NCBI GenBank assembly: GCA_963714015.1
Contig: OY970223.1
Span: 1,248,001 to 1,312,000 of the forward strand
Length of the DNA stretch: 64,000 nt
Direction of reading: 5' to 3'
Source of the DNA: Vulcanimicrobiota bacterium
Lineage (GTDB): Bacteria > Vulcanimicrobiota > Vulcanimicrobiia > Vulcanimicrobiales > Vulcanimicrobiaceae
Shown here piece by piece: positions 58,413 to 63,640 of the stretch. Below the pieces are notes generated by a model. The model ran no database searches and was not told the origin of the DNA. It was given only the letters and a program-made list of their open reading frames with translations. Both the position numbers and the translations under genes were made by a program. Within the stretch, counting starts at the first letter, position 1. Every line of letters starts with the position of its first letter.

Positions 58413-59825
58413 TTAGCCGACTGAGCCTTCCATCTCCATTTTGACGAGGCGATTCAGTTCGACCGCGTATTCCATCGGGAGTTCCTTGACGAAGAAATCG
58501 AAGAACCCGTTGACGATCATTGCGGTAGCGTCGGCTTCGGATAGGCCGCGGCTCATGGCGTAGAAGAGCTGCTCCTCGCCGATTTTACTGACGCTGGCCT
58601 CGTGTTCGACCGTGGAGCGCTGCTCGTGGATCTTCATCGTGGGCTTGGTATCGCTCGCGGACTGCTCGTCCATGATGAGCGCGTCGCACTTCACGCGCGT
58701 TTTCGCGCCCGTCGCGCCGGGATGCACTTCGACCAAGCCGCGATACGTGGTCTTGCCGCCGTGCGCACTGACGGATTTATTGGTCACCACCGACGTCGTG
58801 TTGGGCGCCGCATGAATCACTTTGGCGCCGGCGTCCTGGTGCTGCCCTTCACCGGCGAATGCCATCGAAAGGATCTCGCCGCGCGCGCCTTCTCCCATCA
58901 AGTAGATCGCCGGGTACTTCATCGTCAGACGTGAGCCGATGTTGCCGTCGACCCATTCGACCGTCGCGTTCTTGTGGGCGTACGCGCGTTTGGTGACCAA
59001 GTTAAAGATGTTGCGGTACCAGTTTTGAATGGTCGTATAACGAATCGACGCATCTTCGAGCGCTATGAGCTCTACGACCGCGCTATGCAGCGAGCTGGTC
59101 GAGAACTTGGGGGCCGTGCAGCCCTCGATGTAGTGAACTTTTGCGCCCTTGTCGGCAATGATCAGCGTGCGCTCGAACTGGCCCATATTCTCAGCGTTGA
59201 TGCGAAAATAGGCCTGGAGCGGCATCTTGACTTCGACGCCGGGCGGAACGTAGACGAACGAGCCGCCCGACCAAACGGCGGAATTCAGCGCAGCGAACTT
59301 GTTGTCTGCGGGCGGAATGATCGTCGCGAAATACTTCTGAAGGATCTCGGGATACTGTTTGACGGCTGTGTCCATGTCGCAGAAAAGGACGCCAAGTTTC
59401 TCGAGCTCGGTGCTGACGTTGTGGTAAACGACTTCGGATTCGTACTGTGCCGACACGCCGGCCAAAAACTTACGTTCGGCTTCGGGAATCCCCAGACGAT
59501 CGAAAGTGCGTTTGATGTCGTCGGGGACGTCGTCCCAAGAGCGCTCCGCCCGGTCGGTCGACTTCACGAAATAGTGGATATTTGCAAAGTCGATCTCATT
59601 CAGCAAAGCCGTGTCGCCCCACCCCGGCATGGGCTTGCTCAAGAAGATCTCCAGCGCTTTCAAGCGGAAGTCGCGCATCCAAGCGGGCTCGCTTTTCATC
59701 TCGCTGATGCGCGTGACGATTTCGCGGGTCAGACCCTTCCCCGATTTGAAGACGTAGTTTTCGGGGTCATGAAAGCCGTGTCGATAGTCGTCGACGATTG
59801 CCGTGGTCTTCAGTTCGGTGGCCAT
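58413..59825 (-). CDS. sufB: Fe-S cluster assembly protein SufB
   Basis: [51 protein letters not shown]. Confidence 0.97.
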
Positions 59826-59909
59826 CTGCTGCTGTCGAAATTCCTCTTCTTAAGACGTAGGCCGGCGCACGGGCCGACTTTCAGGCTACCCCCGGCGAGG
59901 GCGATAGTC

Positions 59910-59939
59910 AAGATAGTGAAGTCCTATCTTCACTTTCAA
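59910..59939 (-). promoter_or_regulatory. sufB promoter with overlapping inverted repeats
   Basis: TTGAAA-N18-TATCTT on minus strand; AAGATAG-N7-CTATCTT and AGTGAAG-N6-CTTCACT. Confidence 0.5.
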
Positions 59940-59976
59940 ACCTTCCGGGTCTTCAAAAGTTTCCTCTCCGAATTAC

Positions 59977-60011
59977 TTTACAGGGGGGGTCTGAGGGGAT
60001 ATCATATCCCC
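59977..60011 (+). promoter_or_regulatory. Sigma70 promoter for speD overlapped by a palindrome
   Basis: TTTACA-N17-TATCAT; GGGGATAT-C-ATATCCCC covers the -10. Confidence 0.7.
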
Positions 60012-60268
60012 CGGTCTCTTTATTAAACGCTCTAGCCTTCCTCAGCGGCTGCGGCCGAACGGCCGAGCCGGTCCTGAAGGAGCCAAAGCGTGACGAAGCG
60101 GCCACGGGATATGGGAGGCGCGCCCTTACGCGCCATCGCGGCGAGACGCCCGCGCACCGAAAAAGCGCCGGCAAGAGTTCGCCGATAGGTCGGGGACGTG
60201 ACTGCACTGCAGGCGCCAGCCGACGTGGTCCGGAGGTGGGATTTCCCCCAAGTTCGAGGAGATAGAAA
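60012..60268 (+). promoter_or_regulatory. Long structured speD 5' leader with candidate uORFs
   Basis: About 255 nt between promoter and speD; nested hairpin 60027-60091; short ORFs 60022-60093, 60090-60188 and 60198-60272. Confidence 0.5.
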
Positions 60269-60682
60269 TTGAAGGCACTCGGTACGCACATTGTGTGCGA
60301 ACTCTCGGGGTGTGACCCGAAGGCCCTCACGGACGTCGATGCCGTCCACGCCATGATGATTCAGGCGGCCACTGCGGCCCGCGCGACCATCATGGAGAGC
60401 GCCTTTCACCGGTTCGAGCCACAAGGTGTATCTGGGACCGTCATCTTGGCGGAATCGCATCTGTCCATCCATACTTGGCCCGAGAAGGGCTACGCCGCGA
60501 TGGACTTCTACACGTGCGGCGACCACACGGACCCATGGCTTGCCTGCGAACATGCCGCGAACGTGCTGTCGGCCAAAAACGTGCTGACCACCGAATTCAA
60601 GCGCGGTATCGAGGCGAAAAACGGCACTTACACGCACGTGGTGACCGCGACCGAAGCCGCCGATCGTCCAAAAACAGCCTGA
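60269..60682 (+). CDS. speD: S-adenosylmethionine decarboxylase proenzyme
   Basis: LGTHI, FEPQGVSG, ILAESHLSIHTWPE (pyruvoyl Ser), DFYTCG; GAGGAG RBS. Confidence 0.95.
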   Translation: MKALGTHIVCELSGCDPKALTDVDAVHAMMIQAATAARATIMESAFHRFEPQGVSGTVILAESHLSIHTWPEKGYAAMDFYTCGDHTDPWLACEHAANVLSAKNVLTTEFKRGIEAKNGTYTHVVTATEAADRPKTA

Positions 60683-60705
60683 GCTTCTCTTCGAATAAAA
60701 CATCA

Positions 60706-60738
60706 AACAGCGCGTCAATCGACGCGCTGTTATTTTTT
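60706..60738 (+). terminator. Intrinsic terminator after speD
   Basis: AACAGCGCGTC-AATC-GACGCGCTGTT-ATTTTTT. Confidence 0.85.
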
Positions 60739-60785: not shown

Positions 60786-62568
60786 GTGAAGAATGCATTA
60801 TCCCGACTTGAAATCGTCTTCGTGCTTGGTTTCGCATTTTTGACGGCTTGCGGCGGCGGCGGTGCCGGCGGAAGCTCGGCTCAATCGGCCGGCGGAGGAC
60901 TTATGCCCGCCGCGCCGTCGACGCCCCAGCCCAATCAGAGTTGGCAAGGTCCGGTCGGCTACTTGCAGAGCGGCGGGCCGCTCATTAGTACCGGAGCGAT
61001 AACGCACGGTACTCGGCAAGCAATTGTGGCGGTGATGTCGGGCGATACCGCATCGGGAACGTCGTTCAGTCCCGACAATTTGACGGTCGACACGCAGGGC
61101 AGCAGCTCGCCCAGCAGCTTACGGCGATCCGCCGGGATGCGGGCCCGCCGGTCGTTGATCTCGCAAGTCGTGCCCGTTGAGGCGCACCCGGCGGACGATT
61201 CCGCGCTGCTGCAAAAGCTTCGCGGCATTGCGGCTCCCGGCGCTCGCGCACAATACTCGGAGCGGCGACGCGAGAGCGTCGTTCCCTCGAATCCCGCTGT
61301 TGGTTCGACTGCATCGATTTGGGTCGAAGACGGAGTCGGCACCAACTACAGCGTCCAAGTTCCGGCGACGCTCGTCGTGCAAACCGCTCATGGAAACATT
61401 TGGATGGACGACACGCTGCGCAATACGGCGGCGTGGAGCAATGCAGCTCAGATAGGAACCGACTTCGAAAACGGTTACGTCTCGGACACGGCGCACTTCG
61501 CTCATCCCGATTATCCGGATAGCGCGCCCGGGCTGCAGGCTCAATATCAATCATGCGATTCGAGCGGTCACGTCACCGGTACGGGCAGCGGGTACATCAC
61601 CGAGCCCATCGACCATCGAGTGGACGTCATGGTCGTGAACTCTGCAGACTTGGGGGGATACGGCGGATACTTTTCCGCCGCGAACCTGATGAATCAGAGC
61701 GCTCTAAACTGCCTTGGCGGATCGTATGAATCGAACGAAGCGCCGTTCATTTTCGTCGGATGGTTCCAGAGCCAGAGTTCGGACTACGAGCTTCGCGAAG
61801 ACATGGTTCGCGGGACCGCCCACGAGCTTCAGCATCTCATCAATTTCGTGAACCACGCGCTGCTCCCGGAAGGCTCCTCGAGCCCTTCGTTCAACGGTTC
61901 GGAGTCGCCGTTCATCAACGAGGGCCTTTCAATGCTCGCCCAGGACTTGGCGGTGCAAAAAATGTACGGCGCCCAAGGCGTCAACTTCGATGCCGACGAT
62001 GCGCTCGCGCGTGCCGATGCTTATTTGTCCAATCCGGGCAACTTTTCGATCAGCACGTTCGCGGGCGTCGATTCGACCGAGTGGGGCGGCGGCGGATCGC
62101 CGCGCTACAACTGCTTTGGCGGCTGTTACGGCGGCGCGTATCTCTTCGAGCGTTATCTGCACGATCGCTTCGGAGGCGATTCCTACACGCACGCGATCGA
62201 AACAAGCGGCTCCGTCGGTCCGCAGAACCTTCAGAACGTCACGGGAGAGAGCTCCAGCGACCTGCTCGACGACTTCGCGCTTGCGATGGCCGCGAACGCG
62301 CTGGGTGTGAACAGACTCCGGGCGCTTCGCGTTCGGAACGCTGGGCCTTTCGGGAACGTACGCCGATCAGTTCGGCGAGCAGAAGACGCTCGGCGGTCTC
62401 TACGCTGCGGCGATTTCTGCCGGCGGATCCGTGAACGTTCAGGCGCCGCTCGGAGGATTCACGTTCGTTTCAGTGGCGAGCGTTCCGGCCTCGGGCGTTC
62501 CGCTGACAGTAACCGATCACGCCTCCGTCGGCGGCTTTGCACTCACAGGGGGCCTCGCAGAACACTAG
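60786..62568 (+). CDS. Lipoprotein zinc metallopeptidase, M30-like (frameshift near 62312)
   Basis: Lipobox LTAC; GGYF, TAHELQHLINF (HExxH), INEGLS; natural-looking C-terminus ..GGLAEH* in shifted frame. Confidence 0.75.
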
Positions 62569-62730
62569 GGCCCGTTAATACATTATCGCATAGCCCGTAT
62601 ATCCGGCCCTTTTTCGCTCTCGCGGCGTTGCTGCGGCTGCCACAATGCTGCGGCATTGCGTCAGTCCTCGCGCCTTGCGAGAACAAAAAATGACCGCATA
62701 TCCGAACCATGGACAATGTGTTAACGGGCC
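62569..62730. mobile_element. Foldback MITE (ERIC-like) with CTAG target-site duplication
   Basis: Ends GGCCCGTTAATACATTATC / GACAATGTGTTAACGGGCC (17 of 19 match), imperfect arms about 55-60 bp, CTAG at 62565-62568 and 62731-62734. Confidence 0.8.
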
Positions 62731-62752: not shown

Positions 62753-63640
62753 ATGCCCAAAACTCAGCACTGGCAGTGGTACGTCGAAGAGTTTTTTGCG
62801 ACGGAGCAGCATCATCACGCGATAGAGCGCGTGTATTTCGCGGGCAAGACGCCCTTTCAAAGCGTCGGAGTCATCGAGACACCCGTGCTTGGTAAGATGC
62901 TGATTCTCGACGGCGATACACAGAGTGCCCAGCACGACGAGAAAATCTATCACGAGTCGCTCGTCCATCCCGCGCTCGCGGCAGCGCGCGATCGATCTCA
63001 AGTGCTGATCTTGGGCGGCGGCGAAGGTGCGACGCTTCGCGAAGTCTTGCGGCATCCCGGCGTCAAGCGCGCCACCATGGTGGATATCGACGGCGAAGTC
63101 GTCGAACTTTCGAAGAAGTTTCTCCCGGAATGGTCCGCAGGAGCCTTTGACGATCCGCGTGCGCGCGTGATCGTGGGTGATGCGCTGCAATTCTTGGCGC
63201 GCGACCGCGAGATGTACGGAGCGATCATCTCCGATTTGACGGAGCCGCTCGCGGACTCGCCAAGCAATCCGCTCTTCTGCGACGCGGTGTTCAAGGACAT
63301 CAAAGGCCGCCTGGACGAGGGCGGCATCTACGTGCTGCAGGCGAGCACGGCCGGCTTTCACAACCTGACGCTCCACGCTAAAATGGCGCGCACGCTGCGC
63401 GCGTACTACAAGCACGTCGTTTCGTTTTACACGCACGTTCCGGCGTTCGACAACGACTGGGCGTTCATCGCGTGCAGCGATGCCGTAGACGTCGCCCAGC
63501 TCCAGGAAGACGCGATCGAGCGCTATTGCTCCGAGCTGCGCGGTGAGAATTTCTTCTACGACGGCATAACGCACCGCCGGCTTTTCGCGCTGCCGCTGTA
63601 CCTTCGGCGGGAACTTGCCAAAACGGGAGACACTTTTTGA
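62753..63640 (+). CDS. speE: Spermidine synthase (polyamine aminopropyltransferase)
   Basis: TPFQ, LILDG.TQ, YHESLVHP, VLILGGGEGATLRE, VDID, SDLTEP. Confidence 0.93.
   Translation: MPKTQHWQWYVEEFFATEQHHHAIERVYFAGKTPFQSVGVIETPVLGKMLILDGDTQSAQHDEKIYHESLVHPALAAARDRSQVLILGGGEGATLREVLRHPGVKRATMVDIDGEVVELSKKFLPEWSAGAFDDPRARVIVGDALQFLARDREMYGAIISDLTEPLADSPSNPLFCDAVFKDIKGRLDEGGIYVLQASTAGFHNLTLHAKMARTLRAYYKHVVSFYTHVPAFDNDWAFIACSDAVDVAQLQEDAIERYCSELRGENFFYDGITHRRLFALPLYLRRELAKTGDTF

Follow-up and report, generated by a model that had tools for sequence, protein, structure and literature searches.

Polyamine-sensing riboswitches have long been sought. The one validated spermidine riboswitch, a variant of SAM-I with 13 representatives in Bacillota and acting by transcription termination, is presented as confirming natural spermidine-sensing riboswitches, in a report that calls earlier claims unconvincing (Salvail et al., 2023; PMC10853860). 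The subject here is a different leader RNA, that of speD, the gene for the S-adenosylmethionine (SAM) decarboxylase (AdoMetDC) proenzyme, in a Vulcanimicrobiota bacterium of the family Vulcanimicrobiaceae (GenBank assembly GCA_963714015.1). The gene lies in a stretch of 64,000 nucleotides (nt) (contig OY970223.1, positions 1,248,001 to 1,312,000 of the forward strand), called the window, from whose first letter all positions are counted. Within the leader a core of 140 nt (60111-60250, + strand), consisting of three hairpin arms and a 3' box, is conserved as an RNA. It is an uncatalogued, covariation-supported structured RNA that most likely regulates speD translation. With about even confidence, the core may be the sensor-plus-switch part of a cis-acting speD leader, an undescribed translational element of riboswitch type. 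More tentative, and short of probable, is the fuller proposal of a new riboswitch class, limited to one order of Eremiobacterota, which would sense a metabolite of the polyamine pathway (spermidine or decarboxylated SAM) and control AdoMetDC translation through a phylum-wide box module with a Shine-Dalgarno (SD) mimic, combined with lineage-specific sensor domains.

The SAM-I variant is described as a cis-acting leader before polyamine genes including speD, and in this the present leader resembles it; both are also candidates for feedback by a pathway product. The described variant has a four-stem fold and a terminator platform in Bacillota (PMC10853860), whereas the speD leader has three tandem arms, with no closing P1 in the derived fold, no terminator, and a home in one order-level lineage of another phylum. 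A preliminary description of this DNA, made from the letters alone, had named an Rfam search as a check. With permissive filters, cmscan of Rfam 15 returned nothing at E <=10 in 59700-60400 and nothing at E <=5 in 10 related loci, and within these limits the leader matches no Rfam 15 family and no member of the SAM clan. The best Rfam 15 leader match reaches 15.9 bits where the gathering score is 72.2, and it lies on the opposite strand. Open-access full text and bioRxiv yielded no description of a speD or speH leader motif or of riboswitches in Eremiobacterota.

Translational riboswitches of the SAM-II, SAM/SAH and preQ1 types work through a platform of SD, anti-SD and anti-anti-SD. Like them, the speD leader has a G-rich SD look-alike, a pyrimidine segment and the true SD in series, for which alternative pairings are possible, and a loop-to-tail pseudoknot is possibly shared. 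Unlike them, it shows no sequence or model similarity to these types, and here conservation reaches furthest in the box, the sensor-like domain being specific to a lineage. Polyamine genes are also controlled by leader peptides or upstream open reading frames (uORFs), as with SpeFL and the MAGDIS uORF of AdoMetDC. Such systems share with this locus a long leader before a polyamine gene and a control that is presumably translational; they differ in that no peptide or frame is conserved here, RNA pairing being conserved instead. Finally, the perfect SD complement in the untranslated leader, without a start codon near enough for initiation, is reminiscent of STAB-SD stabilisers and of standby or decoy sites. 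Such elements need no multi-arm fold with invariant junctions, and they are not characterised by linkage to a single gene family throughout a phylum.

A Conserved Three-armed RNA Upstream of speD

The covariance model R1 matches the core with a score of 163.8 bits (E 2.5e-37), its sole match in the genome. Mean identity of the core to 23 relatives from the window's family is 0.83, beside 0.85 for codon positions 1 and 2 of speD and 0.51 for position 3. What is conserved is RNA structure, as seen in compensatory pair changes and in insertions and deletions (indels) that do not come in multiples of three. The preliminary description had proposed looking for covariation among relatives; conserved structure was found at 60111-60250, and the segment 5' of it, which holds the nested hairpin of that description, could not be aligned.

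Three arms make up the fold, all of them reproduced by the single-sequence fold of the window. P1 (60117-60134, + strand) joins GGCGCG to CGCGCC under a loop that opens with CCC. Its six pairs are formed in 99.4% of cells, with G-C replaced by A-U in 12 and by C-G in 3 of 78 distinct sequences, and it is predicted by RNAalifold as well as by single-sequence folding. The P2-P3 arm (60139-60184, + strand) comprises P2 (60139-60145/60178-60184) and P3 (60148-60155/60165-60172), separated by a conserved internal loop (..GACGCC-C / C-CGGCAAGAG..). Changes on both sides affect six of the seven P2 pairs and all seven P3 pairs, and the P3 tip varies in length: it has 8 nt in the window and can reach about 60 nt in the sister family. 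In the P4-P5 arm (60189-60224, + strand), P4 (60189-60193/60220-60224) encloses P5 (60195-60217), which has conserved internal loops (GGGGA / CCAG) and a triloop. Here 6 of 9 and 4 of 4 pairs have changed on both sides, and a CUGC/GCAG pairing has become GUGC/GCAC in 17 sequences. The junctions and internal loops are near-invariant (AUCG, GACGCC-C, CCGGCAAGAG, GAUAGG, GGGGA, CGCCAG). A core fold of three covarying arms with near-invariant junctions is thus conserved.

The fold was derived from 27 leaders aligned with MAFFT, for which RNAalifold predicted 31 pairs and compensatory changes in 16, and was refined to a model of 33 pairs in P1, P2-P3 and P4-P5. Applied to a MAFFT alignment of 24 family sequences, the 33-pair model has 97.3% of cells paired and 13 pairs changed on both sides. 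None of 500 shuffles reached the observed values for four of five measures, and one of 500 did so for the fifth; slid controls paired 22-43% of cells in the same alignment. When the alignment is fitted to the model (90 hits, 78 distinct), 98.1% of cells are paired and double changes occur in 25 of the 33 pairs, with 159 double-change cells observed in the distinct sequences against 29 expected. Ten of the top 20 column pairs by mutual information are pairs of the model. Further pairs of high mutual information separate two clades and are mostly not complementary, and a 3-bp (base pair) helix between columns 4-6 and 197-199 was discarded, since it fits one clade and fails in the other.

A terminator-like site was recorded on the minus strand at 60168-60185. 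The leader structure itself is the most likely source of this signal, because the site is the reverse complement of the 3' strands of P3 and P2 together with the A-run of the P3 loop.

Distribution, Linkage to speD and Transcription

The element is confined to one order-level lineage, in one copy per genome and always before speD. Among 151 genomes sampled evenly over the phylum, R1 matched 70 of the 71 from the window's family and the single genome (1/1) of the sister family, and it matched none of 78 genomes (one of them unpublished) from the other 19 families. In the family genome of that sample lacking a match, speD was not found either. Five more genomes of the family gave no speD, and R1 was silent in four of them; in the fifth, G028, a match of 25.6 bits lies in apparent coding sequence, has no box and is regarded as spurious. 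The spacing to the gene is narrow: the speD start follows the box by 37-44 nt in 30 of 30 fetched R1 hits, and the distance is 35-51 nt in all 73 fetched R1-hit loci checked.

A pattern scan of 185,579 species genomes, anchored on the box and on speD codons, gave at least 119 stretches, from which 80 loci were examined. Among the matches listed, 43 of the 80 loci have the full element (102-161 bits) followed by speD, in 43 of 43 public named records; seven have speD and the box without the three-arm domain; and 30 have no speD and are taken as chance. Four public loci that have no speD (L105, L111, L133, L156) gave weak R1 scores of 17.8-19.8 bits, which are taken as noise. The titles of the 43 records, again among the matches listed, are mostly Vulcanimicrobiota, Candidatus Eremiobacteraeota, Baltobacteraceae, Lustribacter, Aquilonibacter, Tumulicola and Rubrimentiphilum, and four (L087, L091, L112, L153) are titled as other phyla. 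These four, together with L108 and L134, carry the element or a short leader and a SpeD 61-79% identical to that of the window, under titles naming Alphaproteobacteria, Rhodospirillales, proteobacterium, Acidoferrum or Acidiferrales; they are probably mislabelled bins. Four metagenome-assembled genomes titled Alphaproteobacteria (L096, L127, L138, L148) were caught by the scan through a common repeated intergenic element unrelated to speD (..CCACCTCCCCC..GGG-GGAGGTCGGATTTCCC-CGGTTTGC..AAACCGG..GGAAATCCGGG).

Contigs from RNA libraries (four soil or rhizosphere libraries from four studies) cover 60098-60314; at 85% likeness they derive from relatives and not from the window's own organism. One contig of 257 nt spans 60110-60348, from the core into speD, and another of 517 nt spans 60183-60695, which fits co-transcription of core and gene. 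No RNA-library contig covers 59850-60097, a gap that is uninformative on the start site.

A Box with a Shine-Dalgarno Mimic

The box, GGAGGUGGGAUUUCC (60232-60246, + strand), forms the 3' end of the core, and GGAGGUGGGAU is invariant in alignments A1 and A2. Its SD mimic, GGAGGUG (60232-60238), is a perfect 7-nt complement of the 3' tail of the genome's own 16S rRNA (..GGAUCACCUCCUUUCU), which was located with RF00177 and whose 3' end was read directly. The mimic is not a translation start, because no canonical start codon follows it at initiation distance. AUU or AUC follows the mimic in most leaders and is missing in four; a uORF initiated there was considered and rejected, its frame relative to the speD start not being constant. 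A pyrimidine run from 60242 is able to pair with the mimic or with the SD of speD itself. Across leaders the 3' arm of the box (AUCUCC, AUUUCC, AUUUUCC and similar) is complementary also to the true SD (GGAG, GGGGG, GGAAGG), and the box arms can form a hairpin of 3-6 bp in 119 of 120 leaders.

Of 120 distinct leaders from throughout the phylum, 119 have the box at 33-52 nt before the start of speD, and it occurs also in families without the three-arm domain, which have short, different leaders (the class-level sister family and four more). In one large-genome family it is present in 13 of 16 genomes, missing in two and degenerate in one. In other families GGAGGUGGG(A/U)UYUYCC stands about 35-45 nt before speD (L200-L205, L210, L211, L215-L230), and each family without the three arms (leaders L200-L230) has its own short upstream hairpins. 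In these other families, where the leaders are short, the predicted accessibility of the SD drops when the mimic is blocked in silico, for example from 0.56 to 0.04.

A triplet that lies about 7 nt 5' of the box in the sister family, CCC or CCG, varies in step with a GGG or CGG in the box loop. The pattern has the appearance of a single compensatory change at clade level and hints at a small pseudoknot. The counterpart of the triplet in the window's family could be the CCC of the P1 loop, which is invariant there.

Proposed Mechanism of Control

On the + strand no terminator-like site was found within 60012-60268, the only nearby one overlapping the -10 box of the promoter, and control would therefore act on translation initiation. 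The three-arm fold may bind a small molecule of the path from SAM to spermidine, with spermidine or decarboxylated SAM the most likely ligands, as feedback signals, and SAM itself less likely. Binding would then decide the fate of the box. With the pyrimidine segment (UUUCC) paired to the mimic (GGAGGUG), the ribosome-binding site of speD would be open, and with the same segment paired to the GGAG of speD itself, it would be closed. A liganded domain might capture the mimic, for example through pairing of the box GGG with the CCC that is invariant in the P1 loop, and so free the pyrimidine segment; the freed segment would mask the true SD and translation would fall, giving feedback repression. 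The opposite polarity is an alternative, in which the ligand would stabilise the pairing of mimic and pyrimidine segment and open the site.

Several results weigh against a ligand-driven switch of this kind. Covariation was looked for in the switching helices and none was seen, and RNAalifold found no conserved helix that sequesters the SD. Blocking the mimic in silico changed SD accessibility in the window leader only from 0.44 to 0.37, and over all 113 leaders accessibility fell in 47 and rose in 33, with mixed outcomes in the window's family. No non-nested Watson-Crick pair stands out by mutual information as a pseudoknot would. A closing helix of 5' GGGAGG with 3' UUUCCC is possible in every sequence and was set aside, having no covariation; its native energy of -7.40 kcal/mol compares with -7.54 for permuted partners, with 466 of 500 permutations doing equally well or better. 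The thermodynamic stability of the leader is no better than that of shuffles (z = 0.12 for the whole leader, 0.20 for the core). The counts from the model-fitted alignment, A5, lean towards the model. The evidence for transcription is weak, because it consists of contigs only and DNA carry-over is possible. Finally, the box is phylum-wide while the domain upstream of it differs by lineage. In the usual riboswitch the aptamer is conserved and the platform variable, the reverse of the pattern here, and the wider conservation of the box leaves room for a trans factor that reads it.

Alternative Explanations

Such a trans factor would be the basis of the strongest alternative, that the leader binds a protein or the 30S subunit rather than a metabolite, through autoregulation by SpeD, through CsrA, or through a ribosome decoy or standby site at GGAGGUG, with the three-arm domain serving as scaffold or recognition surface. 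Though unlikely on the whole, it has points in its favour: the box keeps its distance of 33-52 nt from the start throughout the phylum whatever lies upstream, the mimic complements the 16S tail of its own genome perfectly, and ribosomal-protein leaders are known to show the same type of covariation and linkage to a single gene. For CsrA in particular, the window's genome encodes the protein (87.6 bits), and GGA occurs in both the box loop and the SD, as it does in most leaders (the box loop of L035 has none). The protein is found in 67 of 71 family genomes, and its patchy occurrence fails to follow that of the box (in assemblies such as these an absence is no proof). It was found in only two of nine genomes of the class-level sister family (one of the nine unpublished), of which eight have the box, and was not found in three family genomes of 96-99% completeness that carry the full element, so that its candidacy as the box factor is weakened by patchy occurrence. 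Also counted against this alternative are the missing start codon at SD spacing and the varying frame of AUU/AUC relative to speD. We know of no AdoMetDC that binds its own mRNA in bacteria, which counts against autoregulation by SpeD.

A second alternative, improbable in our view, dispenses with sensing: a structured 5' end and a strong SD-like site would hold the 30S subunit and guard the transcript against 5' decay in the manner of STAB-SD, making the leader a constitutive element of stability or expression. It would account for a strong SD without a start codon in an untranslated leader, for a 5'-proximal hairpin in most relatives, and for the fact that no switching helix is demonstrable in the window's family. 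Three arms with near-invariant junctions maintained across about 45 genera are not needed for such a function, however, and the exclusive linkage to speD in one copy per genome is left unexplained.

It is very unlikely that the block is an independent gene for a small RNA next to speD. As a discrete, highly conserved stretch of 140 nt with its own promoter upstream it has the look of one, but no + strand terminator separates it from speD, its distance to the speD start is held within 35-51 nt at every locus checked, one RNA-library contig joins it to the gene, and it is not found where speD is not found.

Short Open Reading Frames and the Variable 5' Segment

The preliminary description had proposed a chain of three coupled uORFs, A, B and C, relaying ribosomes to speD, with arrest or attenuation sensing polyamines or arginine. 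The open reading frames (ORFs) themselves exist. Frame A (60022-60093) reads IKRSSLPQRLRPNGRAGPEGAKA* from an ATT; frames B (60090-60188) and C (60198-60272) have GTG starts and the peptides then given; and such control of polyamine genes is, according to the same description, known in other organisms. The TGA of frame C does overlap the TTG start of speD, an arrangement kept in only 6 of 24 family leaders, the window and five others.

The leader opens with a stretch of about 90 nt (60012-60104, + strand) that holds frame A, the start of frame B and a nested hairpin (60027-60091). This stretch differs in length and sequence even inside the genus and is not alignable between relatives; its mean identity to relatives, 0.49, is the level of unrelated sequence. 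The hairpin is the minimum free energy fold of 60020-60100 (-33.6 kcal/mol, z = -2.55, 3 of 200 shuffles as stable). It had been thought to hide the SD of frame B, a role not borne out, as it sits in a lineage-specific insert, and relatives carry a shorter hairpin of different sequence in its place.

Codon-level comparison of relatives shows no conserved coding frames in the A/B/C chain. The stop of frame B, the TAG of GAUAGG, is lost in 8 of 24 family leaders of alignment A2, which read GAAAGG. The GUG homologous to the start of frame C opens an ORF of at least 15 codons in 18 of 24 family leaders, because this GUG is part of the conserved RNA. Relative to speD these ORFs lie in frame 0 in seven leaders, frame 1 in four and frame 2 in seven, the other six leaders having no such ORF, and close relatives differ by 1-nt indels within frame C. 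Substitutions track base-pairing and not codon position. The impression that a GPEGAK coding string recurs before speD did not hold, since among 214 fetched loci the 18-nt string is confined to the two of the window itself. An earlier caution that short frames arise by chance was well placed, the 6-kb neighbourhood containing 93 ORFs of at least 20 amino acids (aa). On these sequence comparisons frames A-C are no more than chance, and B and C are by-products of reading GC-rich RNA and not genes. The uORF relay, already contradicted by this comparison of relatives, is scarcely credible. What survives of the earlier idea is a polyamine-linked leader switch in its outline, the speD leader being long, structured, conserved and a good candidate for regulation; the relay mechanism does not.

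Promoter, Gene and Locus

The promoter reported in the preliminary description is present at its claimed place. The site (59977-60005, + strand) consists of a -35 element TTTACA (59977-59982), a 17-nt spacer and a -10 element TATCAT (60000-60005), matching 10 of 12 consensus positions, and the promoter scan gave two promoter-like sites in the region against 0.3 expected in shuffles. Transcription is predicted to start near 60012. The pair TTTACA...TAnnAT is kept 5' of speD in 24 of 24 published family leaders, whose lengths are 186-315 nt. The spacer (59983-59999) has a G-rich sequence that both the window's family and the sister family conserve (TTTACAGGGGGGG..AGGGG.TATCAT), which is unusual for a spacer and may point to a regulator site or a discriminator-like feature.

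The gene itself, speD (60269-60682, + strand), is of the speH type and encodes a class 1b AdoMetDC proenzyme of 137 aa (PF02675, 137.6 bits). It is preceded by a ribosome-binding site (60256-60271, + strand) with GAGGAG at 60256-60261 and a TTG start at 60269-60271. The TTG is taken as the true start, because the column is kept as TTG, GTG or ATG among 30 relatives (26, 2 and 2, respectively). Some homologues of SpeD are described as arginine or ornithine decarboxylases (PMC10407285). For the product of this gene a true AdoMetDC is favoured, because the gene is single (a protein query of the whole genome gave this speD only, with no second copy matched), because a spermidine synthase gene, speE (62753-63640), lies 2 kb downstream, and because its match to the TIGR03330 equivalog scores 144 bits against a cut-off of 75.65. 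The gene is present in 52 of 61 related genomes, or in 47 of 56 when five unpublished ones, all with speD, are left aside. An intrinsic-terminator-like hairpin (60706-60731, + strand; an 11-bp stem followed by ATTTTTT) lies 3' of speD, so that the transcript would be monocistronic.

Upstream, the 443-nt intergenic gap separates speD from the divergent sufB (58413-59825, minus strand; SUFBD_core match). An inverted repeat in this gap (59907-59940; AGTGAAG-N6-CTTCACT within AAGATAGTGAAG...CTTCAC) overlaps a minus-strand promoter-like site (59939-59910) and looks like an operator for the suf operon; repeats of a similar kind (CAAGATAGTGAAG...CTTCACTATCTT) occur upstream of speD leaders in several relatives. 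Between speD and speE lies an ORF of 635 aa (60786-62693) with a lipoprotein-like N-terminus (..FLTAC), for which Pfam and NCBIfam searches gave no match.

Significance

If the proposed class is real, it would be a second, structurally unrelated leader placed before the committed enzyme of spermidine synthesis, and it would offer a testable orphan aptamer of 140 nt with a handful of candidate ligands. The phylum-wide SD-mimic box suggests that a fixed switch module may acquire different sensor domains in the course of evolution. Even without a ligand, the core is a well-defined, covariation-supported family of cis-regulatory RNA that is missing from Rfam 15, and it would add a regulatory RNA from an uncultured soil phylum with almost no experimental genetics.

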